Assembly: GCA_963722765.1 (NCBI GenBank)
Contig: CAVROO010000025.1
Location: forward strand, 104,378 to 168,377
Direction: 5' to 3'
Length of the DNA: 64,000 nt
Origin: an uncultured Acidobacteriota bacterium
GTDB lineage: Bacteria > Acidobacteriota > Vicinamibacteria > Marinacidobacterales > DATDRI01
Part shown: in pieces, positions 16,678-62,725 of the stretch
Position numbering within the stretch: the stretch's first letter is position 1
Layout of the letters: every line of letters starts with the position of its first letter
Made by a program: the position numbers and the translations under genes
Notes under the pieces: model-generated
What the model saw: the letters and a program-made list of their open reading frames with translations, nothing else
What the model was told of the DNA's origin: nothing
Databases searched by the model: none

Positions 16678-16827
16678 CCGAGCCCGTGCCCTGCCCGAGC
16701 CCGGAAGCAGCAAGAAGATAACTAGTCCACTGATACAGGACACTAGCCGCGCCGTGGCATTAGAATTGTTTCGCTAATCCTTGTATAAATCGCTTTCTTG
16801 AGACCACGAATGGAGTGAGGTGATTTT

Positions 16828-26567: not shown

Positions 26568-26590
26568 CTTGATATTGATATCATATCAAG
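26568..26590 (+). promoter_or_regulatory. palindromic operator candidate upstream of the RHH antitoxin gene
   Basis: CTTGATAT-TGATATCA-TATCAAG, nested palindrome in an AT-rich stretch ~45 nt upstream of ATG 26635. RHH antitoxins typically autoregulate through such sites. Confidence 0.55.
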
Positions 26591-26634
26591 ATATCATGTT
26601 GCATTGGTTGGATACAACAGGAAGGAGCCAAAAA

Positions 26635-26871
26635 ATGGGTGCTGTTTCACTCAAGCTGCCCGACGAATTACTCGAGGCCAGTGGTCGTTGCGCTGCAGCC
26701 CTTCAAATACCGCGAGCCGAGTACATAAGACGCGCCATCGAAATAATGAACAAGGAGACGCAAAAGCATTTAAGAGCCCAGAGGTTGGCTGAGTCTTCCC
26801 GAAAAGTGCGCGAGGAAAGCATGAAGGTCAATGCCGAGTTCGCGGCCATCGAGCGAGATCCCGATGTTTAG
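26635..26871 (+). CDS. ribbon-helix-helix (CopG-like) antitoxin
   Basis: ATG 26635 after GGAAGGAG. MGAVSLKLPDELLEASGRCAAALQIPRAEYIRRAIEIM.. fits beta-strand + two helices of RHH. 8-nt overlap with the MazF-like gene. Confidence 0.75.
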   Translation: MGAVSLKLPDELLEASGRCAAALQIPRAEYIRRAIEIMNKETQKHLRAQRLAESSRKVREESMKVNAEFAAIERDPDV

Positions 26872-27208
26872 GAGGGGTGAGATTTGGCTGGCCGATCTCG
26901 ATCCGCCACGTGGCACTGAGCCCGGCAAAACCCGTCCTGTACTTATCATTCAATCTCAAACCCTCTTGGATGTCCAGCATCCATCGACGTTGATCGTCCC
27001 CTTGACTACGAACCTCGTGGAAGACGCCGAGCCGCTCCGTATACGTGTACCTGCTTTTGGACGTCTTCGTCATAAGTCGGACCTGCTAATCGACCAACTT
27101 CGCGCGATCGACAACAGGCAAATGGTCAAGGGACCTCTTGCTCATCTGGGACGTGATCTCATGGCGCGGGTTCGCGAAGCCCTCATGGAAACCCTCGATT
27201 TCATTTGA
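26864..27208 (+). CDS. mazF: MazF/PemK family type II toxin (endoribonuclease)
   Basis: MFRRGEIWLADLDPPRGTEPGKTRPVLIIQSQ..LIVPLTTNL..IDQLRAIDNRQM: canonical PemK/MazF N-terminal motif and length (114 aa). Confidence 0.85.
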   Translation: MFRRGEIWLADLDPPRGTEPGKTRPVLIIQSQTLLDVQHPSTLIVPLTTNLVEDAEPLRIRVPAFGRLRHKSDLLIDQLRAIDNRQMVKGPLAHLGRDLMARVREALMETLDFI

Positions 27209-27327: not shown

Positions 27328-28743
27328 CTAATTCTTCGAGGCCGCGGCACTCGAGCTCGAATTGTTCTGCTGGGCCTGCTTTCGGAAAGTTTCCGGTTGG
27401 ATTCCGTACTTTTTCATCACGTCGTAGAAATCCTTCCGGTCCTTCTTGGCAAGCCGTGCCGCCTGCGAGATGTTGCCCTGGCAGATGCGGAGCACCTGCG
27501 AAATGTACTCCTTCTCGAACTCCCGCTTCGCCTCCTTGAAGGACTGGAACTTGTTCGATGAAACGGGCACGTGGAAAAACAGGTCCTCGGCGGTGATGAC
27601 GTTGTTACGCGTCAGCACCATGGCTTGCTTGACTTTGTTTTTGAGCTCGCGGACGTTGCCCGGCCACTGATAGGTCATCATTTTTTGGATGGCCGCCGGT
27701 GAGAAACCCTCTACCTTCTTTCCCAGCTCCTTGTTGAAATCGTTGAGAAAGTGGTTGATAAGGAGCGGAATATCCTCCTTGCGCTCCCGCAGGGGAGGAA
27801 TGTGGATAGGGATAACGTTCAAGCGGTAGAAGAGATCCTCGCGGAACGATTTTTCGGCAATGGCCTGGATCAAATCCTTGTTCGTGGCGGCGATGACGCG
27901 CACATCCACTTTGATGGGTTTGGTGGAGCCGATGCGCTTGAACTCGCCGTCCTGGAGCACCCTTAGAAACTTGACCTGAAGCGGCAAGGGCAACTCGCCG
28001 ATCTCGTCCAGGAACAAGGTTCCACAGTGGGCTTCTTCGAAAAGTCCTTTCTGATCGGTCCGAGCGTCCGTATAAGCTCCCTTGACGTGTCCGAAGAGCT
28101 CGTTCTCGATGAGGTTCTCCGGGATAGCACCGCAATTCTCAACGATAAAGGGCTTGTCGGCTCGCTTGCCTGTGTAATGGATGGCCCTCGCGACGAGCTC
28201 TTTCCCGGTGCCCGATTCACCATAGATGATGACCGGTACATCGTTCTGAGCCACGATGGAGATTTGCGTCAGGAGCTCTTCGATTTTCGGGCAAGATCCG
28301 ACGATGAAGTCGGATTTGCGCCGGGTCATAATCCTCGAACGGACCTGCTTTACCTCGGTGGTGGTGCGGTGCTTGTCGAGGGCCCGTTTGACGCGGCCCA
28401 TGAGCTCTTCGACGTCGAAGGGCTTAGTGACGTAGTGGAATACGCCCTCCTGCATGAGCTGGACCGCATCATTCACCTCACCGTATGCGGTCATGACGAT
28501 GACGGGAATCTCGGGATTGAACTTGGCTACGGCCCGTGCCAGCTCGTCGCCCCGAAGTCGAGGCATCTTCAGATCCGTGATGACGAGATTGAAGACCTCC
28601 TGGCGAATCAGGTTGATCCCCTCTTCACCATTGGCGGCGGTCACGACACTGTAGCCTTCTCGCTCGAGACGGTGTCGCAGCATTCGGAGCATGCTGGCGT
28701 CGTCATCCACAATTAGCACTTGTGGCCCTGAGGGCTCCTTCAT
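27328..28743 (-). CDS. sigma-54-dependent response regulator (NtrC-family EBP: REC + AAA+ + Fis-type HTH)
   Basis: Likely start MKEPSGPQVLIVDDD (28743). REC with D in VITDLKMP, Walker A GESGTGKE, Walker B TLFLDEIGE, sigma-54 contact loop present as GAYTDA, WPGNVREL, C-terminal HTH GNISQAARLAKKDRKDFYDVMKKYGI. Confidence 0.9.
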   Translation of the reverse strand: MKEPSGPQVLIVDDDASMLRMLRHRLEREGYSVVTAANGEEGINLIRQEVFNLVITDLKMPRLRGDELARAVAKFNPEIPVIVMTAYGEVNDAVQLMQEGVFHYVTKPFDVEELMGRVKRALDKHRTTTEVKQVRSRIMTRRKSDFIVGSCPKIEELLTQISIVAQNDVPVIIYGESGTGKELVARAIHYTGKRADKPFIVENCGAIPENLIENELFGHVKGAYTDARTDQKGLFEEAHCGTLFLDEIGELPLPLQVKFLRVLQDGEFKRIGSTKPIKVDVRVIAATNKDLIQAIAEKSFREDLFYRLNVIPIHIPPLRERKEDIPLLINHFLNDFNKELGKKVEGFSPAAIQKMMTYQWPGNVRELKNKVKQAMVLTRNNVITAEDLFFHVPVSSNKFQSFKEAKREFEKEYISQVLRICQGNISQAARLAKKDRKDFYDVMKKYGIQPETFRKQAQQNNSSSSAAASKN

Positions 28744-28824
28744 TGCTACGGCTCCGTCGTTTTCTTTTTGGGTGTAGGGAAAATTATACACCGTTTTTTC
28801 TCCAATGGAAAGAAGGGTTTCGAC

Positions 28825-29976
28825 TCATGCTCGTCCCCTTGCCCCAATCCCGGTCCGCCAAAGTGAACGGTTCCACCGTGCGAGGGCGTGCCGACGCACC
28901 AGGTAGAGGCCTCGACGAAGGACGGAATTGCGATTAACTGCGCTTATGCCTCGTGGTTGGAGTGTTTCCGATATCAACTGATACGCATCCTTGAGGCTCG
29001 GCGTCCATGCAATACGGTTCCAAGGGGATCCGTTCACCGAATCCTCCGAGGCAGATATCAGCGACGAGATCTTCAGGTTCTTCACCCAACGTCGCAAACG
29101 ACCGGGGACCCGGGACTCGAGAGCTTCAAGAGCGCTTTGTACCTTGGCGTTGGGGAGGACCCGATGGCTGATGCCGAGTCCCGCAAAAACCAAAGGAGTG
29201 AGCCTTGGTTTCGAGGCCTGATCGAGGAAACGGTCCCAATCGAGCGCGGGAAGTTGTGCCAACAGATAGACGTCACAAGCATTGATGCCAGGTTGGCGAA
29301 GTCCGTGCTGGAAGCTTCCATGTAGACAAAGGTGGAGCAGGTGGTCCTCCGGCGAGAGCGTTCTCGCCGGTGGGGCGCCATGTCCGGTGCTCCGCGATCG
29401 CGTGAACATCGCCCCGGGATCGAGACCGAGATACCAGGGACAGCTGGTCAAGCTCGTGTGAATCTCGAGATGAGTTCCACTCTTCGAGTGTCGGAGTGAG
29501 ATGGCATGATCCGTAGTTTGGTAGAGCGTGTAGTCGAGTTTCTCCGCCAGCTTTATCGCTGCAGAGGTGTCTCGCTCGTGAATGAGGACATCCAGATCGG
29601 CCATCGGACGAAGCCCGGAACCTCCATAGAGCCAACCGACGAAAGCCGCGCCCTTTAGAAGAAGAACTGGAATGTTGGACCGATGGGCTGCCTCAATGAG
29701 CGATTCACAGTGATCGAGCAGAACGACGTTTCGCGCCAGATTCGTGTAATAGTCCGAATAGAGAGAGGACCAAACGCGTGTCGGCGGTAGCGATTCCAGT
29801 TTGGCACGCCGCGCCGACTCGTAAACGAGACCCGAGAAACGATGTTTCCGAGCGGTTCTCAATATGAAGTCCCAGTCGGCCGTTTCGAATTGGCTTCCAT
29901 CAAACCGTGGTCGGCACTTTTCGGTCAAGCCCGCTTCCACGAGCGAAAGGAGGGCCCGAATCGATGCTTCAGACAC
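28825..29976 (-). CDS. uncharacterised nucleotidyltransferase family protein (NTP_transf_5-like)
   Basis: 383-aa ORF. VLLLKGAAFVGWLYGGSGLRPMADLDVLIHERD..AIKLAEKLDY.. then HLEIH..HLLHLCLH matches the pattern I recall for PF14907 proteins. 8-nt overlap with the upstream peptidase gene. Confidence 0.65.
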   Translation of the reverse strand: MSEASIRALLSLVEAGLTEKCRPRFDGSQFETADWDFILRTARKHRFSGLVYESARRAKLESLPPTRVWSSLYSDYYTNLARNVVLLDHCESLIEAAHRSNIPVLLLKGAAFVGWLYGGSGLRPMADLDVLIHERDTSAAIKLAEKLDYTLYQTTDHAISLRHSKSGTHLEIHTSLTSCPWYLGLDPGAMFTRSRSTGHGAPPARTLSPEDHLLHLCLHGSFQHGLRQPGINACDVYLLAQLPALDWDRFLDQASKPRLTPLVFAGLGISHRVLPNAKVQSALEALESRVPGRLRRWVKNLKISSLISASEDSVNGSPWNRIAWTPSLKDAYQLISETLQPRGISAVNRNSVLRRGLYLVRRHALARWNRSLWRTGIGARGRA

Positions 29977-30430
29977 GGGATGCTCCTTGTGAGGCGGCTT
30001 GCCCCAGCCAATGTCGCATGGTCGATTTCATTCTCACCAGTCGAGGGTAGAGATTGCTCATACGCAGGCCGAGCCAACGGGAAAAACCAGTGTCTGTGAG
30101 AATCGGGACCGGTCCTTCGACTCGAACCACCCTGCCCAATATTTGGTCTGGTCTCCGTGGGCCGTCGAAAGTGGCGCACGAATCCCCTTTTGCGAGGATG
30201 GTTTCGGCGGATTGGGAAAGGACGCGGTGCGTGGTGAGTTTACCGTCATCCCCGCGGAAGAGCGCGATCTCTCCGACGCGCAGCGGTTCATCGACGGGAG
30301 CGACGTGCAAGAAACGCCCGCTTACCAAAAGCGGTTTCATGCTCCAGCCGGCGACCTGAATACGCACGGTTTTCCCGGAATTCAGTAACGCGGCCACGAG
30401 CTCGGACTTATCGCTATTGTTTAACACCAT
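29969..30430 (-). CDS. S26B (SipW/Sec11-like) signal-peptidase-family protein
   Basis: RIQVAGWSMKPLL (GxSMxP Ser motif), LTTHRVL (His motif), ILAKGDSCATFDGP (KGDxxxxxD). I place the start at ATG 30430 because a consensus sigma-54 promoter lies inside the longer TTG-initiated ORF (to 30505). Confidence 0.65.
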   Translation of the reverse strand: MVLNNSDKSELVAALLNSGKTVRIQVAGWSMKPLLVSGRFLHVAPVDEPLRVGEIALFRGDDGKLTTHRVLSQSAETILAKGDSCATFDGPRRPDQILGRVVRVEGPVPILTDTGFSRWLGLRMSNLYPRLVRMKSTMRHWLGQAASQGASRV

Positions 30431-30461
30431 TATAGAGATCCGCAGGGACAATTCCCCACTC

Positions 30462-30477
30462 TGCAAACGGCGTGCCA
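30462..30477 (-). promoter_or_regulatory. sigma-54 promoter P1 (perfect -24/-12 consensus)
   Basis: Minus strand reads TGGCACGCCGTTTGCA = TGGCACG-N4-TTGCA. GC element ~33 nt upstream of ATG 30430. Confidence 0.8.
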
Positions 30478-30498
30478 GGCGCCGAAGATCGGGGCGTC

Positions 30499-30511
30499 TA
30501 AACAATTGATA
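30499..30511 (-). promoter_or_regulatory. IHF-like site upstream of P1
   Basis: Minus strand TATCAATTGTTTA fits WATCAANNNNTTR, 22 nt upstream of the -24 element. Confidence 0.5.
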
Positions 30512-30640
30512 AATAAGGTCTTATATTCCAATGAGGGAATTCGGCAATAGGTTTGGCCCTACGTATGGGTGGAAACCCACGCGGGATGGAGCCCTAGTAT
30601 CAAATAAAAAGCCTGTCACAGGATAGCCAGACGTTGGTTG

Positions 30641-30677
30641 AAATGCCAACTTGTAAATCTTTGTATAATTGGCATTT
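30641..30677. promoter_or_regulatory. 9-bp perfect inverted repeat, candidate upstream activator site for P1
   Basis: AAATGCCAA-N19-TTGGCATTT, 165-200 nt upstream of P1. Half-sites resemble the GTGCCA-N5-TGGCAC palindrome at 50371..50387. Confidence 0.4.
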
Positions 30678-30934
30678 ATGGGTGCGATTCGTTGAAGGCG
30701 ATAGCGGCGATGGGGAGTGGCCCTGGGGGGATTTCCCAATATTCCGTCGGGAATCCCCCTCGTCTGTCGAATCTAGTGTCCTGTATCAGTAGATCGTGGC
30801 CTAAAGCTCGAGGTCATTTTGTGTCCTGGCAAGGCGTGCCGACGAAGACATATCCCGATATTTCGAGGAGGCACAACGAAGCTGGGCGCGCAAAAGGGGC
30901 CGAGATTTAGGTGACGAATTACTGACACAGGGCA

Positions 30935-31999
30935 CTAGGGCTGGGTTTGTACCACTACGAAATACGAATAGCCCGACGGCGGGCCTTCGAAGCCCAAGGT
31001 ACTGATTGCAGTGACCCTCCAGAAGTACGTGCCCGGCGGGAGATCCAGGACTCTAACCGTCGGCTCGCCGCGGACCTCGCGCTCCACGACGAGATCGAAA
31101 AAGCTCTCATCCCGAGCGATCTCTAAGCGATAACCCTGCATGTCCCCGACGGCGCTCCATTCGAAATTCTGATCGAAGGGCTCACCCCGAAAGACCTGTT
31201 CGGGCTGCGGAGCGACTAGGTTCGCGGGGGCGGATGGAAGTGATTGCGGTTCTCCGAGCGGCTCCCCGGCCCGGGAAAGCAGACCTGAGCTCGCGGGGAC
31301 CGAAATTGATTCTGTTCCTGCGTTGAGCTCTACGTTGCCGTCAAGCACTTCGAGACGGCTGACGTCTCCTGATTCCACTTTAAGCCGAAAGTCCGTTCCA
31401 CGAATAATGGTGCTGGCGGTGGGGGTCTTGACTTCGAACCGTCCACCGGTCTTTTTTTTGATACTCGACCAGATCGTCCCCTCCAAGAGCTCGAGCTGCA
31501 CCCGAACCCCGGAATCTTTGGCATCCAGTGTGGTGAGCCGAGCTCGGCCGTTGCTTCGGATCAGAACGAAACTTTTGTCTTCGAACAAGATACGGCCGCC
31601 GGATCTCCGCCAGGTCCGGATCACATCTCCTTCACGGAGAAGAAGGTTCTTGACCACGGGGATGAAGCGATGATCGAAGGATCTCCGTATTTCGGTTTCG
31701 CCGTAGAATCCCGCGATTTTGGCGAGAAACTCGTCGCTCGCAAACATGTCTCGGGTCAGCTCTAGGTGTAATCCCGAGCGCAGCAAATTGAATCGGGAAA
31801 TGTCTTCCCACTGACCCGTGATTTCCGTGTAGGTCTGAAAAACATTCTCGGGACTGGAATCAGAGTCCGTCAGAATGAGCACATACGACTCGGGAGCGGC
31901 TGAGCGATCGTTACGGGTACCCTGGGCCGAGACTCCGCTCGATAACAAGAGGCCCATTAGCGTAACCCAAACCGGACTGTGTCGCGTCAACACCGGCAA
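30935..31999 (-). CDS. secreted FecR-domain protein with C-terminal Fn3/Ig-like module
   Basis: Signal peptide (..LLLSSGVSAQG). FecR core GGRFEVKTPTASTIIRGTDFRLKVESGDVSRLEVLDGNVELN. C-terminal FEWSAVGDMQGYRLEIARDESF..PPGTYFWRVTAIS. Start TTG 31999 or GTG 31993 after AAGGAGG. Confidence 0.75.
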   Translation of the reverse strand: MPVLTRHSPVWVTLMGLLLSSGVSAQGTRNDRSAAPESYVLILTDSDSSPENVFQTYTEITGQWEDISRFNLLRSGLHLELTRDMFASDEFLAKIAGFYGETEIRRSFDHRFIPVVKNLLLREGDVIRTWRRSGGRILFEDKSFVLIRSNGRARLTTLDAKDSGVRVQLELLEGTIWSSIKKKTGGRFEVKTPTASTIIRGTDFRLKVESGDVSRLEVLDGNVELNAGTESISVPASSGLLSRAGEPLGEPQSLPSAPANLVAPQPEQVFRGEPFDQNFEWSAVGDMQGYRLEIARDESFFDLVVEREVRGEPTVRVLDLPPGTYFWRVTAISTLGFEGPPSGYSYFVVVQTQP

Positions 32000-32147
32000 A
32001 CCTCCTTAGTTAAAGCAAGGTAATAATGGCTGAACCTGGGGCTACCGCTGGAGCTGTGAGGATCAACTGGACCATTCGCATTAACCACAAGCGCAGTAGC
32101 AGGAGCACGAGCGTGAACATTCGCCCCAGGCTTCTAGTGTTGGATGG

Positions 32148-32163
32148 AGCAAATCCTTTGCCA
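32148..32163 (-). promoter_or_regulatory. sigma-54 promoter P2 (upstream of FecR-like gene)
   Basis: Minus strand TGGCAAAGGATTTGCT. GG-N10-GC spacing correct, TTGCT -12 element. ~140-150 nt upstream of the start codon. Confidence 0.6.
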
Positions 32164-32424
32164 CTTCTCAAAAAAAAAGCTATTTACTTGGAAGTCTTTA
32201 TTTCATAGGTGTTTGGATGTGACACTTCCAGGCACCGATGCGAGAAAAGCGATGGGATTCCCCCTCAGTTCGAGCACAATTCACCACGTGGAAAAATAGC
32301 CCCATGTGTTGTAAGTGTTTTATTATCTGTGTTTTATAAGGAGAAATGGTGCCGCTGGTTACGTCCGGGTGGCTCCGGTGTCCGGCGGTGTTTTGGTTAT
32401 TCTTTATAGCCTTAAGTCTTTTAT

Positions 32425-32437
32425 TATCAATAATTTA
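32425..32437 (+). promoter_or_regulatory. IHF-like site upstream of P3
   Basis: TATCAATAATTTA fits WATCAANNNNTTR, 25 nt upstream of the -24 element, in an AT-rich stretch. Confidence 0.5.
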
Positions 32438-32462
32438 AATTTCATATTGTTCTTCGCCGGCA

Positions 32463-32478
32463 TGGCATGAGGGTTGCT
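32463..32478 (+). promoter_or_regulatory. sigma-54 promoter P3 (upstream of 32525..33919)
   Basis: TGGCATGAGGGTTGCT. One mismatch to TGGCACG-N4-TTGCW, correct spacing. Predicted TSS ~36 nt before ATG 32525, which has a GAGGT Shine-Dalgarno. Confidence 0.7.
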
Positions 32479-32524
32479 TTAAATGCAAACAGACGACGGA
32501 TGTATTTCGCCATGAGGTTAACGT

Positions 32525-33919
32525 ATGTCTAGAAGACAAGATCGCAATCGCCGGGCGAGTGTTCTGATTCTGGTCGTAGTGGGTGTTATTGCGGCCATGG
32601 GCTACGGTATCGCTCAAAGCGCTGTGGTCACGCAAGCAGAGTGGGCTGTGTACATGGTACGGGCCCTCAACCTGGATTGGAACCTGCCTCCTAATCCGAA
32701 GAGCAATCACTATATCGAGCGGCTGAACTGGCGATCGGGAATCGAGTTCGCTGCGACTTCATTGGAGTCCGGCTCGAGTCCGACGGTTCGTGTTGACGCG
32801 CAGATCGACCAGGGCTTCATAGAGGCCCAGGGGCCGGCAGCCGAGGCGATGTATCGCGTCTCCACCATTCGTCCCGGTGAGTACGGCTTCCGACTGAAGC
32901 TGGCAAACGGCGGCGCCGTGGTCAAAGTGGGCAGCGCGGTCTTCGAAGCGTACCAGCCCGAGAATGATTTTCGCTGGGTGGATTTAGATCGAGTCAGTCT
33001 CGATCCCGGAGATCATACCTTGAGCCTCCTGCTCAATGAGGGGACGCGGACTCAAACGATTGGGGTGACACCGCCTTGTCTGATTTCTATTGAGCCGAAT
33101 ACCGGCTGGCAGCCGCTCGTTCCATTGACCTTCTCGGACTTGGCTGTGACGGTTGCGCAGGCACTCGACCTCGAGATAGGGCTCCCCGAGTTGGGACAGG
33201 AGACCACGATTAAAGGTGAGGAGTTCACCCGCCTCCTCGAGGTTCCGTTAGAGGAAACTGCCGAGGATGGAAGTCCCGATCCGTTCTGGCTCTCGAGCGG
33301 CAATATGTTGCTCACTGCCGAGACCCGATTCGAAATTTCGGAGCCCGGTCTCTACACCATCGAAGCACGGTATTTCAGTCCCAAGGAAATACGTTGGATC
33401 GTTGACGGTTGTTTGCGGGTTATTACTTGTCCTGTCAGCGCCCAAGGCGGAGTGAAGTGGACGTCGGTGGTTGCGATTCAACTCGAGGCCGGCTCACACG
33501 ATCTGACGATCACCATGCCGCCGAACGCCTCGCTGGACCGATTGAACATCAAGCAAAGAGACGGGTCCATTGAGGAGTATCTTGGTGTGGCGTCAGATGA
33601 AGGATTCAAGCTCGGGGACGCCGACGAGCCAGTGAGCCGTCGTCGCGCCATTGCGGCGGCCGTTCGTTTGAGAAGTCTTTTCGACCGATGGAAGACATCC
33701 CGATGCAACGATTCACTCATCGCACTCGATGAGTTGAGCGCTCTCATCATGGCGGCAGGAAGCGGGGATGGCGGTGGTCAAGAAGGACCTGGAGTAGTAA
33801 ATCAGGGTGCGATCCCAGGAGTGGTGGTTCGAACGCCGGTGGATGATTCAAGCAATCCCATTCTCCCGTCGCCGGGTGGCGATCCGGACGTGAGCAGCCC
33901 GACGCGGCCGGGACAATAA
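32525..33919 (+). CDS. secreted protein with two tandem [SLH-like helix + beta-sandwich] units and Pro/Gly-rich tail; function unknown
   Basis: 464-aa ORF. Signal anchor ASVLILVVVGVIAAMGYGIAQS. VTQAEWAVYMVRALNLD and LTFSDLAVTVAQALDLE resemble SLH-type helices, each followed by a beta-rich block (RVSTIRPGEYGFRLKL.. / FEISEPGLYTIEARYF..). Confidence 0.6.
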   Translation: MSRRQDRNRRASVLILVVVGVIAAMGYGIAQSAVVTQAEWAVYMVRALNLDWNLPPNPKSNHYIERLNWRSGIEFAATSLESGSSPTVRVDAQIDQGFIEAQGPAAEAMYRVSTIRPGEYGFRLKLANGGAVVKVGSAVFEAYQPENDFRWVDLDRVSLDPGDHTLSLLLNEGTRTQTIGVTPPCLISIEPNTGWQPLVPLTFSDLAVTVAQALDLEIGLPELGQETTIKGEEFTRLLEVPLEETAEDGSPDPFWLSSGNMLLTAETRFEISEPGLYTIEARYFSPKEIRWIVDGCLRVITCPVSAQGGVKWTSVVAIQLEAGSHDLTITMPPNASLDRLNIKQRDGSIEEYLGVASDEGFKLGDADEPVSRRRAIAAAVRLRSLFDRWKTSRCNDSLIALDELSALIMAAGSGDGGGQEGPGVVNQGAIPGVVVRTPVDDSSNPILPSPGGDPDVSSPTRPGQ

Positions 33920-34265: not shown

Positions 34266-36354
34266 CTAGCTCGCGGCGGGTCTCGTGATGCGAGTCACCT
34301 TGGCTTCCGGGTCGTTCTTCTGCTGGTAGTAGCCGTAGTACCGGTGGTACGAGTCCTGCTTGGGATCGACACCGTTTAAAACGACACCGGCGAGTCGCGC
34401 CTCCGTTCGGAGAAGCGAGTTCAAACAGCGACGGGCCAGCTTACGGTTGACCATGTTGTAGCGAACGATGAGGAGCACCGTATCGACCAATTTGGACAGA
34501 AGGAGAGAGTCGGTCACCGAAGCGATAGGTGGTGTATCGACAATGATCCAGGTGTAGTGCTCACGGCACTCCTCGAGGAATTTTTTGACGGACGGGCTTC
34601 CGATGAGGGCCGGCGGATTGGGCGGTAGTTTCCCGGACGCCACGGCTTCGAGGTTGTCGAAGCGGGTTCGCTGAACAATGATGTCCAGCTTGAGCTCTCG
34701 ACCGCAATAGTCGGCCAGTCCCGGCTCACGATAGAGCCGCAATTCGCGGTGGACACAACCACGTCGGAGATCGAAATCGACCAATAAAGTAGGCTCGCCC
34801 GATTCAGCGAGAGCTTTCGCCATGTTAATGGCGGTGGTGGACTTACCTTCCTGAGGAATCGAACTAGTGACTAGGATGATGTTGCCTTGGTCACGTTGGC
34901 GATTGAAAAGGAGGCTGGTCCGAAGAGTCCGATAAGACTCGGTGATGATGCTGGCGTTGGACGCGTCGTGACGAGGCACCACTGCCAAGCAAGGTGCTCG
35001 GAGATGGGTCTCGATGTCCTCTTGCTCCTTGAGTGTGTTGTCTAAGTAGTCTCTTCCCAGCACCAATCCGCAGCCACAGGCCATCCCCAGAACGAGAGCG
35101 AGAATCATGTTCTTGGTAGGCTGGGGACTTACGGGAGACGTGGGAACGGTGGCCGCTTGTACGAAGGACACGTTGTTATTCCAGAGACTCGATGCGATGT
35201 CCGTTTCCTTGATCTTCTGGAGGATGGCTTCGTAGAGACTCTTGTTGGAAACCGCTTCGCCCCGCAGCATATCGAGTTGCACTGCCTTGCGGCTCTCCTC
35301 GATAGATTGTTGTTTTTGGTTGTTGACCGTTGCTCTCAGTTCTCTTTCTCGACGAAGCACCTGATTGTAGTCGGCCTCCAACCCTTCGACAATCTTCGCC
35401 GCCCGGGCAGCGATGGCGTCTTCGAACTGCTCAATTTGAGTCCGGCGCTTTTTTATCTCGGGGTGTCCCTCTTTGTACTTGTTCTTGAGCTGCATGAGCT
35501 CGACCTGGATGTCGGCCCTTTGCTTGGCGAGGTCTTTCACCAAAGAATCCCGACTAACTTGCGGAACGTTCTCCAAGGAGGCGCCCTTTTTTGTCAATGT
35601 GCGGATTCTGAGTCAACGTGGAGTCGAGCTCGATGCGGCGAGTTTTGGCGTCCGTGTAGGCTTCGTTCAATTTCTCGAGAGTACCCGTGGCAATGCTCCG
35701 GCTGCCTTCTGGGATGTAGATGTTTTCCCCCTCGCTGTACTCGTGGAGCTTTTCTTCCGATTGCCGAACCGCATCTTGCACGTCTCCCAGACGTTCTTGC
35801 AGCCAGCTGTAGATGTCACGCGTGGTTTGTACCTTGGCTTCGATGTTTTGATCCACGTAGACTTCGGCCAGTGTATTGGCCCAATGAGCGGCTCGCTTGG
35901 GATCCGTGTGGCTGACGCTGATTTGGGCGAGGCGGGTGTCGGGCACGGGTACGACCTCGACATGAGACACGAAGATGGCCGCCGGATCCTTTGCGCCTTT
36001 AAAAGGAGGTTCCTTGGTCAAGCTCAATTTTTCGATGACTTGCTTACCTAGAGCTTTGCTACGGATGATCCAATACTGACTTTTGTAGTAATTCTGGTAG
36101 TCGAACCAGTTGAACGCTGTGGCAGGATAAGGATTGGAGAGGGCGTTCAGGTTTTGCCCCGGCGGCTCGATCTGTACGACCGACCGAGCCTTATAGATGG
36201 GCGTCTGCATGGAAGTGGCAAGGTAACCCAGCGCGAGAGCAACCACCGTTACGGCAATGATGATGGTCTTGCCATTCCACAGAACGTTGAGCCCGTACCG
36301 GAGGTCAAATCCTTCTCCGAGGCCCGGCATCAGTTGGGTGGATTCTTCGTTCAC
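34266..36354 (-). CDS. wzc: polysaccharide co-polymerase / BY-kinase (Wzc-like), frame change ~35590 as assembled
   Basis: ORF 35554..36354 = Wzz-type N-domain with TM. ORF 34266..35597 = coiled coil, second TM, kinase domain with Walker A SSIPQEGKSTTA, LLVDFDLRR, Walker B IIVDTPP and C-terminal Tyr cluster YHRYYGYYQQ. Junction lies in an A/T homopolymer (cccttttttg). Confidence 0.85.
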
Positions 36355-40421: not shown

Positions 40422-40844
40422 CGCTCTAGTTTGGCCTCCCGTTTTCGGAGCGATTGTGTGGGATTCCCTATTGTCTGTCGGTAGTTCCCCACAGGTGTTC
40501 CTGCCGCTGACTCGCTAAGCATCAACCTCGGGTGGTTTTCTAAAAACTCCTTGTAATCAGTCACTTGCGGTGTGTTTTCCGTCCGAGTTGCCTGTGAAAG
40601 AAAACTCAGCGAAACGCTCTGCCCATGGCAGCATTTCTGGGGTATTCCTCCGTGGGCATTTCCACCCGCAGTCACCGCCGAGTATGAAAATTCCATAGCA
40701 TCGACACTCGATGCGTATTTGTCGGCTTTCCCGTCAGAGTCCTTTTTGGCTTTAACAGTCAATGGTTTAGAGTCTCCATCGATTTCGAATCGCCTTCCAG
40801 GCCATGGAAGGACCTCGACTCGATTCTCAACAAACCCAGTGTTT

Positions 40845-42136: not shown

Positions 42137-42169
42137 GCTCTGCCAACGTGCAACTGGTGTGCCATGTTC

Positions 42170-47820: not shown

Positions 47821-47836
47821 AGCAACCGACGTGCCA
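47821..47836 (-). promoter_or_regulatory. sigma-54 promoter P5 (perfect consensus)
   Basis: Minus strand TGGCACGTCGGTTGCT = TGGCACG-N4-TTGCT, in the 91-nt gap between the polymerase-like and acetyltransferase genes. Confidence 0.75.
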
Positions 47837-49287: not shown

Positions 49288-49541
49288 CGAGCGGGACTAC
49301 GTTTCGGTCAAGAACTTTTGATACGACATGGACAACTTTGTGGGAATTTCCCTACGCTCGTCAATAAGCAGCGTGTGACATCTCGTTTTGTGACCATATA
49401 ATTGTTCAGTTTCTTGAGCTCTTGTGGGCTCGGCAGCGGCTCGAGACGCGTTGGCAGTGGGAAATTGGGACTCGAGGCTAGGACCGTGGTTTCAAATGCT
49501 TTTGAGTCAGGCGCGGCTCGAGATATGCGGATTTGTTTCGA

Positions 49542-62124: not shown

Positions 62125-62725
62125 GCTCTCTCCTTAGTAGTGAAATAGAGTATTCGGCTGCACTTACTGCCGGCGAACTTGCCGCTTTGGTATCTAGGTT
62201 TTCAGGGAACTTTAGGTAATCATAGCATACCGATCGATCTTTTTTGCTGTCGCCTTGCGGGAAGAAGTGACAGACCTGCAGGGAAAAGCCCCTCAGAAAA
62301 CCTTGGAAATAGGAGCATTTGATGGGATTCACCTACGAAGGCCGATTCGAAACAAGTGTTTGCCTCTTGGCTGAATGTGACTCGGCCTGGTGTATCTAGT
62401 TGAAAGAAAAATGGTTGTGAAGTTGCTTTTCGACGAGCGTCAATCCAACGGGAACTGGCAAAGGTTTTGCTATGTCCAATGGTTGTTAACGAAGAAGTTG
62501 AGCCCCAACGCTGAAGTTGAAGCGAAGGTTGTCAGATCGCCGCCCCCTAGGATTAGGCAGCTACTCTAGGATGGCGGGTTCAGGTAGCTGCTGAACCTGG
62601 GCGGCACCCTGCGAGGCGAGGTCGGAGTGGGTGTGAAGGTCGATTCCGGTGACGGTTCCGGGTTTCGGTTAGTCGCATCCAGGTTGGGGGCTCCGATCTC
62701 GCCCGCCCCCCCCAAACAACTCTTC

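Follow-up and report, generated by a model that had tools for sequence, protein, structure and literature searches.

The operon studied here comprises three genes, which together with their upstream control elements all lie on the minus strand of the window, the 64-kb stretch of DNA analysed. The sequence-only reading had assigned them to an S24/S26-like peptidase, an NTP_transf_5 protein, and an NtrC-type response-regulator activator, and domain matches uphold these assignments. The genes and their upstream neighbours are as follows:

27328..28791, minus strand: gene of the NtrC-type response-regulator enhancer-binding protein (the "activator"), third in the operon, the listed ORF starting with GTG
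28825..29976, minus strand: NTP_transf_5 nucleotidyltransferase gene (PF14907, E=6.5e-50)
29969..30430, minus strand: S24/S26-like (archaeal/ER-type signal-peptidase-like) peptidase gene, 153 aa, ATG at 30430
30935-31999, minus strand: gene of a FecR-domain secreted protein, upstream of the peptidase gene
32525-33919, plus strand: divergent 464-aa gene of the upstream neighbourhood, with no family assigned

The peptidase displays conserved GWSMKP, HRV, and KGD motifs, and its profile matches are weak, TIGR02228 (E=5e-7) and Peptidase_S24 (E=2e-4) both scoring under their curated cut-offs. Its stop codon and the nucleotidyltransferase gene overlap by 8 nt. Nothing informative was found in the literature on PF14907/NTP_transf_5. 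The activator is composed of a receiver domain (PF00072), a sigma-54 AAA+ domain (PF00158; Sigma54_activat, 236 bits), PF25601, and HTH_8 (PF02954), its best NCBIfam matches all falling under the equivalog cut-offs. Its L1 loop reads GAYTDA in place of GAFTGA, a sequence listed as a natural GAFTGA variant compatible with activation (DVU2275) (PMC4641369).

To the right of the operon extends a polysaccharide locus of roughly 28 kb, which harbors a Wza-like protein, a split Wzz/Wzc, an EpsL-like porin, several glycosyltransferases, a flippase, Wzy_C, and an XrtA-type amidotransferase-like AsnB. To its left are found a mazEF-like pair, pyruvate dehydrogenase genes, sulfatases, and TPR proteins. 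No rpoN, HU/IHF (ihfA/ihfB), or histidine kinase gene was seen within the 64-kb window, and rpoN, ihfA/ihfB, and the cognate kinase are assumed to be located somewhere in the genome. Further copies of a 166-nt inverted-repeat element were sought, and its 18-nt end alone recurs, once.

Only eight peptidase homologues are detectable in a large protein collection, 150-153 aa long except for one fragment and one 166-aa call (P0007). The DNA compared consists of the window and eight loci (L001-L008). Of these, L001 does not differ from the window, L002-L005 come from short contigs, and L006-L008, from metagenome contigs, show the complete gene order: divergent gene, fecR-like gene (missing upstream in L007), peptidase, nucleotidyltransferase, activator. 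The peptidase-nucleotidyltransferase adjacency is retained in L002-L008. This orthologue set is small, with six to eight lineages, some of them closely related and all metagenomic; the closest relative in the upstream footprint shares 48% peptidase identity, and the footprint set does not include three JGI contigs whose relatives are closer or syntenic (78%, 73%, and 41% identity). A further 24 species-genome relatives of the peptidase (L009-L032, 29-42% identity) were left out of footprinting because they are distant and have neither a nearby activator gene nor synteny. The activator is 85-92% identical in L006-L008, against 41-48% for the peptidase and 50-53% for the nucleotidyltransferase. 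Between the window and L006, 212 of the 466 third codon positions of the activator gene differ (about 45%), and DNA free of constraint is therefore expected to be scrambled at such distances. In the upstream alignment, the footprints show a mean pairwise column identity of 0.67-0.85, versus 0.33-0.50 for the intervening spacers. Positions below are given relative to the transcription start predicted at 30451, the C at 30463 being -12. The elements of the control region are:

30431..30461, minus strand: short 5' leader with the predicted start (~30451), a conserved GGGGnnTGTTCCC element, and the Shine-Dalgarno region
30477-30462, minus strand: sigma-54 promoter TGGCACGCCGTTTGCA, a 12/12 consensus match
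30511-30499 (-60..-48), minus strand: IHF-like core TATCAATTGTTTA, an exact match to WATCAANNNNTTR
30531-30512, minus strand: A/T-rich 5' tract of the IHF-like site, with ttattt directly before the core
30532..30552 (-101..-81), minus strand: Block C (CCyrTTGyyGnAyyCCCyCA), column identity 0.70
30560..30582 (-131..-109), minus strand: Block B (GTrGGyTT....CCCATACGT), column identity 0.76
30677-30669 / 30649-30641 (-226..-190), minus strand: inverted repeat AAATGCCAA-N19-TTGGCATTT, perfect over 9 bp, not conserved
30724..30760 (-309..-273), minus strand: Block A, two M sites GGGGGATTCCC / GGGAAATCCCCC, column identity 0.82 in six lineages

The promoter, the IHF-like site, and the inverted repeat had been described from the sequence alone, and all were found where they had been placed, on the minus strand. 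The sigma-54 promoter is real. Its doublets, the -24 GG (30476/30475) and the -12 GC (30464/30463), are exactly 10 nt apart. The exact motif TGGCACG-N4-TTGCW occurs twice in 64 kb, versus 0.02 occurrences expected, and with at most one mismatch six times, versus 1.06 expected in the 64-kb window; all six matches of at least 11/12 are intergenic and directed at a gene start. TGGCAyG-N4-TTGCA is invariant in L002-L008, hence in eight lineages with the window, 46-47 nt ahead of the ATG. The -24/-12 element (-26..-11) displays a mean pairwise column identity of 0.85. The perfect promoter that had been proposed is thus exact in consensus, beyond chance, and conserved.

Transcription should start at about 30451, as placed from the -12 GC, within a leader whose segment from -10 to +20 shows a mean column identity of 0.69 across seven lineages. 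The listed ORF is headed by TTG 30505, in frame with ATG 30430, which lies 31 nt downstream of the TGGCACGCCGTTTGCA motif. The alignment of the peptidase homologues begins at the Met at 30430, residue 26 of the listed ORF, and none of them matches the 25 residues before it; these 25 codons are therefore non-coding, and the start at ATG 30430 advanced in the sequence-only reading holds. In P0007, the 166-aa call, the assigned ATG overlaps the TGGCAC of its own promoter.

The IHF-like core is separated from the TGG of the sigma-54 motif by 21 nt. The consensus WATCAANNNNTTR has two matches in the window versus 1.14 expected, a count that is uninformative by itself. Both matches (30499-30511 and 32425-32437), however, are located 21 and 25 nt upstream of the -24 elements, on the same strand, of the two sigma-54 promoters with the best placement. 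We estimate the chance of such a placement at roughly 0.002 per site (seven promoters, each with a 30-nt band, over 128,000 strand positions), and it is therefore not a chance expectation. In seven lineages, the core starts at -57/-58, its CAA-N4-TTA is invariant, and its flank is T-rich on the 5' side. The first three core positions vary, with 0-2 mismatches among lineages, and the mean pairwise column identity of the core is 0.67. The IHF-like site predicted between the promoter and the upstream elements is thus exact in consensus and conserved in position, and IHF would bind at this core.

The third element of the sequence-only reading, the inverted repeat taken as the upstream enhancer, has not fared as well. 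It is present and perfect, and the comparison with related genomes that had been proposed along with it sustains the promoter and the IHF-like site and fails to sustain the repeat. In six lineages, the column identity of its arms (0.47) and of its spacer (0.45) is that of background, although the helix-turn-helix segment of the activator is identical, where readable, in the window, L006, and L007. No dyad exists at this position in L002 or L005-L008 in the upstream alignment. The sequence-only reading had itself named lack of conservation of the repeat as evidence against its proposal, and this is what is observed. Among dinucleotide shuffles of the 504-nt intergenic region, 6.1% yield a perfect inverted repeat that is 9 bp or longer and whose loop does not exceed 40 nt. 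Half-sites with at most one mismatch are not enriched in the window (13 versus 11.6 expected), and further copies of the repeat are found neither in the window nor upstream of its other sigma-54 promoters. That the AAATGCCAA-N19-TTGGCATTT repeat serves as the enhancer for the operon's own activator is therefore improbable. In its favor are its perfect 9-bp symmetry and its position at a permissible distance upstream of the IHF-like site; it could, moreover, be lineage-specific, the nearest footprinted relative having 48% peptidase identity. Against this, the repeat is not conserved in five other lineages, including L006-L008 with their 85-92% identical activators, the chance probability of such a repeat is ~0.06, and three blocks of the same region are better conserved. 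The lesson for method is that the most striking dyad in a single sequence need not be a constrained element: six to eight relatives indicated other blocks, with spacing exact to the base.

Block B, the dyad TGGGT-TTCC-ACCCA in the window, is unique there, and its start is fixed at -128/-129 in all seven of seven lineages. Such base-exact spacing is what a face-of-helix constraint on an activator site would produce, and Block B is the best candidate for the proximal enhancer. Block C was found with an nhmmer profile in every orthologous locus and nowhere else in the window; it is a candidate site for the activator or for another regulator. Block A consists of two palindromes of the type GGGGwwwTCCC (the "M site"), about 21 bp apart from center to center. 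From one lineage to another, it shifts by about 20 nt relative to the promoter. Since L007 keeps Block A despite having no fecR-like gene, the block is not simply the terminator of that gene. Block A is a candidate distal enhancer or operator; given its variable distance and a second copy that has no clear sigma-54 promoter beside it (see below), an operator for another factor fits equally. The three blocks have different sequences and differently spaced G3/C3 arms, and may be bound by more than one protein. The M-type palindromes and Block B are much better enhancer candidates than the inverted repeat. Two other assignments were tried and rejected: Block C with a TATAT stretch as a sigma-70 promoter has poor hexamers, the final T of the -10 being missing in most lineages, and Block B as half of an ECF-type -35/-10 pair has no conserved partner hexamer.

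Related elements are found farther upstream, before the FecR-domain gene and the divergent gene:

32163-32148, minus strand: additional sigma-54 promoter TGGCAAAGGATTTGCT, 10/12, intergenic, ahead of a leader/small ORF and the FecR-domain gene
32254..32264, no strand assigned: single M site GGGATTCCCCC, between the divergent sigma-54 promoters
32463-32478, plus strand: sigma-54 promoter TGGCATGAGGGTTGCT of the divergent gene, with an IHF consensus match at 32425-32437

The promoter TGGCAAAGGATTTGCT was newly found through the alignment of the region before the divergent gene and is conserved in L006 and L007. It is followed by a 115-nt leader with about 76% nucleotide identity. Within this leader, a 36-aa small ORF shows codon-position differences of 11/6/8, with no third-position excess, and RNA folding of the leader gives z=0.18, with one compensatory pair in three sequences. 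The IHF match of the divergent promoter is the window's one other exact IHF consensus besides that of the peptidase promoter, and the divergent promoter is also detected (E=0.005) with a profile made from the peptidase promoters over the stretch between IHF site and promoter. Relative to the 32163 promoter, the single M site begins at -126/-128 in the window, L006, and L007, a position equivalent to that of Block B at the peptidase promoter. In L006 and L007, some 140 nt separate it from the divergent promoter (-137..-147 in L006 by our own arithmetic). A site between two divergent promoters is the classic shared-enhancer arrangement. The Block A profile detects one more copy in the window, at 40460-40495 (E=0.0036), 40-75 nt ahead of the start of a priming glycosyltransferase gene at the head of the polysaccharide export operon; no clear sigma-54 promoter accompanies this copy. 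For another sigma-54 match, GGGAAATTCCC is located 81-91 nt upstream of the predicted start.

The activator gene follows the nucleotidyltransferase gene after a gap of 33 nt (GTG start) or 81 nt (next ATG). No terminator-like site is present in this spacer, terminator-like matches being no commoner in the region than in shuffles. A further feature lies here:

28811-28783, minus strand: sigma-70-like promoter TTTCCA-17-TATAAT, 10/12, overlapping the activator's listed GTG start

In four lineages (the window, L006, L007, and L008), the -10 hexamer does not vary and the distance between the hexamers is unchanged. The 27 nt after the GTG show zero synonymous changes, versus 45% third-position divergence across the gene, which suggests that this stretch is a promoter and that the activator starts at ATG 28743 (MKEPSG). 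The TATAAT stretch also belongs to a reading frame that is uninterrupted in all lineages and has GGAG before its GTG, and could instead be coding, with a Shine-Dalgarno-GTG activator start.

The sequence-only reading had also proposed a positive autoregulatory loop. The conserved gene order and the terminator-free spacer make positive autoregulation plausible. The proposal needs modifying, however: with the sigma-70-like promoter ahead of the activator gene, the loop would amplify a basal level instead of being the sole source of the activator. The circuit thus probably combines basal activator from its own promoter with amplification by sigma-54 read-through.

Taken together, these features can be assembled into a model in which the about 505-nt region upstream of the peptidase gene would be a sigma-54-dependent control region. 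RNA polymerase-sigma-54 would bind at 30477-30462, the transcript starting from near 30451 and translation at ATG 30430. An IHF/HU-type bending protein would bind the CAA-N4-TTA core and the A/T tract, at about -48..-80, and the resulting bend would bring the upstream-bound activator to the closed complex. The activator would dock on the conserved blocks and not on the AAATGCCAA repeat: on Block B, possibly with a contribution of Block C, while the paired palindromes of Block A, at about -290, could provide a distal site. The likeliest activator would be the orphan NtrC-type response regulator encoded by the third gene, phosphorylated by a kinase encoded outside the window. Activation would then raise activator synthesis (positive feedback) over the basal level supplied by the sigma-70-like promoter, and the same activator would probably also act on the sigma-54 promoters nearby and on the polysaccharide locus beside the operon. 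From the sequence and its conservation, we infer the pairing of blocks with protein, the co-transcription of the three genes, and the feedback loop. As a whole, this conserved-block sigma-54 control of the operon is fairly probable.

The sigma-54 promoter might also be activated by another enhancer-binding protein encoded elsewhere, the operon's own regulator acting on other promoters so that no loop would exist. The activator is linked to the conserved blocks by proximity alone, its gene has its own conserved sigma-70-like promoter, and it evolves far slower than its two upstream neighbours (85-92% versus 41-53% identity), suggesting a function that is not tied to them. Such an external activator is nonetheless rather unlikely, since the peptidase, nucleotidyltransferase, and activator genes keep their order among relatives, the gaps between them are short, the spacer contains no terminator, and enhancer-binding proteins are commonly found inside the sigma-54 operons that they control (PMC4641369). 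Chance occurrence of the sigma-54 match, with a conventional promoter driving the operon, is extremely unlikely. Promoter motifs are by themselves no proof of function and the rpoN of this genome is unseen, yet the motif statistics and conservation both oppose a fortuitous match, and a sigma-54 activator is encoded in the operon itself. No coding-strand sigma-70-like match is found near the start; the sole minus-strand one in this stretch (30649-30620) uses the non-conserved TTGGCA arm of the inverted repeat.

The conserved blocks could alternatively act in RNA, as 3' end, processing, or attenuation signals of a read-through transcript from the 32163 promoter. Block A is able to form an 11-bp hairpin and lies downstream of the FecR-domain gene, and in L007 the upstream promoter and leader run directly into it. 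However, comparison of 29900-32600 with Rfam yielded no hit at a permissive threshold, and no U-tract is present. Furthermore, each half of Block A is palindromic alone, its arms differ by indels between lineages with no co-variation, and the space between divergent promoters holds Block A-like and M sites too. The exact distance of Block B to the downstream promoter is likewise a constraint of DNA geometry. A role at the RNA level is very unlikely.

The enhancer-IHF-sigma-54 layout with the regulator in its own operon is a known textbook design, of which the conserved-block control proposed here is an ordinary new instance. In the E. coli glnALG operon, the sigma-54 promoter glnAp2 is activated by NtrC, and an internal sigma-70 promoter, glnLp, is present. 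As in glnALG, the activator gene comes last in an operon under a sigma-54 promoter that is its presumed target, and a weak internal sigma-70-type promoter before the regulator gives a basal supply on which positive feedback can act. The glnALG operon differs in that it includes the kinase gene ntrB, whereas no kinase gene is seen in the window; in that glnAp2 is independent of IHF, whereas the peptidase promoter has an IHF-like site; and in its NtrC sites, of the TGCACC-N5-GGTGCA type, which are unlike Blocks A-C. The operon genes here are instead those of a peptidase and a nucleotidyltransferase. The Pu promoter of Pseudomonas putida (XylR) and the Klebsiella nifH promoter (NifA) are UAS-IHF-sigma-54 promoters. 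They share with the present region an IHF site (an IHF-like one here) centered around -50 to -70, between the -24/-12 element and upstream activator sites (candidate ones here) near -100 to -200. In contrast, the activator here is a phosphorylation-controlled response regulator, and the candidate enhancer sequences are new. The biological surprise of such an architecture is small; some additional interest comes from the recurrence of the M palindrome, from a Block B spacing that is exact to the base, and from the conserved leader driven by sigma-54. What is gained is a corrected start for the peptidase gene and a promoter with good support, along with a concrete regulatory map, open to testing, of an uncharacterised operon beside a large polysaccharide locus of an uncultured bacterium.

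Two further systems deserve comparison. In the PrsK-PrsR-PrsT system of PEP-CTERM/exosortase loci, motif 1 (17 nt ending in TTTACA) is located 32-92 nt upstream of the sigma-54 motif (Haft et al. 2006, PMC1569441). As in that system, an NtrC-like response regulator is encoded near a large polysaccharide locus, and several single sigma-54 promoters are found in long intergenic regions (PMC1569441); some genes of the locus also weakly resemble XrtA-associated families (the amidotransferase with 569 bits and the EpsL-like porin). Identity of the activator with PrsR was rejected, TIGR02915 giving 407.4 bits versus a cut-off of 502.6. No PrsK, PrsT, exosortase, or PEP-CTERM gene was seen within the window, and a motif 1 ending in TTTACA is absent at 32-92 nt upstream of every sigma-54 match in the window; the sole TTTACA near the peptidase promoter is 171 nt away. 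In Desulfovibrio vulgaris, activators are found among their own sigma-54 target operons, e.g., DVU1418-1419 and DVU3382-3381 (Kazakov et al. 2015, PMC4641369), and regulons for polysaccharide and biofilm genes have been described (PMC4641369). The likeness proposed to these systems is that of an activator encoded in its own sigma-54 operon.

Six to seven sigma-54 promoter matches are present in and around the polysaccharide locus of the window, and the neighbourhood supports the existence of a sigma-54 regulon. It is conceivable, and stays a tentative proposal, that one orphan response-regulator activator, with its GAYTDA loop, drives a compact sigma-54 regulon via a previously undescribed GGGGwwwTCCC enhancer, a motif present as a pair ~290 nt before the peptidase operon, as one shared copy at the divergent promoters, and as a second pair ahead of the polysaccharide export operon. 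Such a regulon would couple polysaccharide export to a fast-evolving module of a cytoplasmic S26-like peptidase and an NTP_transf_5 protein, and also to the sigma-54-driven, nucleotide-conserved 115-nt leader or small RNA.

Ahead of the FecR-domain gene, which lies upstream of the peptidase operon, a third sigma-54 promoter is followed by a leader of ~115 nt conserved at the nucleotide level (window 32010-32163, minus strand). The FecR-domain gene is truncated in the related locus L006 (1878-2444), where the promoter and the leader are kept, and both are still there in a second relative, L007 (820-1640), which is devoid of the gene. Across loci L006-L008, the activator displays 85-92% identity, versus only 41-48% for the peptidase. 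The promoter, the ORF within its leader and three other sigma-54 matches of the window are as follows:

32163-32148, minus strand: third sigma-54 promoter, TGGCAAAGGATTTGCT, kept in L006 and L007
32120-32010, minus strand: small ORF of 36 residues, hydrophobic, inside the leader
47821-47836, minus strand: strong match, 17 nt ahead of the listed start codon of an acetyltransferase-like gene
42149-42164, minus strand: strong match, 13 nt ahead of the listed start codon of a glycosyltransferase gene
62456-62471, plus strand: TGGCAAAGGTTTTGCT, near-identical to the promoter at 32163, intergenic

The conserved stretch may act as a leader or as a small RNA, or it may encode a small protein. The 36-residue ORF exhibits no third-codon bias, and a long-range pairing between GCCUGGGGC and GCCCCAGG could mask its ribosome-binding site. 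For the matches at 47821-47836 and 42149-42164, either the listed start codons are placed too far upstream, or the transcripts carry almost no leader. No convincing ORF is found downstream of TGGCAAAGGTTTTGCT.

A palindromic motif, GGGG(n)wwwTCCC, is repeated near sigma-54 promoters and ahead of the polysaccharide export operon (window 30724-30760, 32254-32264, 40460-40495 and 49342-49352). The copy at 40460-40495 closely resembles the paired palindromes found upstream of the peptidase promoter in L008 (GGGGAAnTnCCGACAGACnATAGGGAATCCC).

Between the FecR-domain gene and the operon, an element that may be a miniature mobile element has been observed:

30773-30938: 166-nt element, with 38-nt terminal inverted repeats that are 82% complementary

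Its start coincides exactly with the FecR-domain gene's stop codon, and neither L002 nor L008 has it at the equivalent position. A solitary second copy of its 18-nt end, CTAGTGTCCTGTATCAGT, is found in another intergenic region (16729-16746).

The GTG listed as the start of the activator gene overlaps with a conserved sigma-70-like promoter (window 28743-28824), and the true start may be ATG 28743. The sigma-54-contacting loop of the protein (encoded at 28063-28080) reads GAYTDA instead of GAFTGA, a rare natural variant also described for DVU2275 (PMC4641369). Convergent with the end of this gene is a toxin gene:

26569-27208, plus strand: MazF/PemK-family toxin gene, overlapped by a small ORF that lies upstream

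A Wzz-like chain-length determinant and a GNVR/tyrosine-kinase part are encoded by two ORFs overlapping by 44 nt (34266-36354, minus strand). They match opposite ends of a single family model, and the pair represents a split gene or, alternatively, a frameshift.
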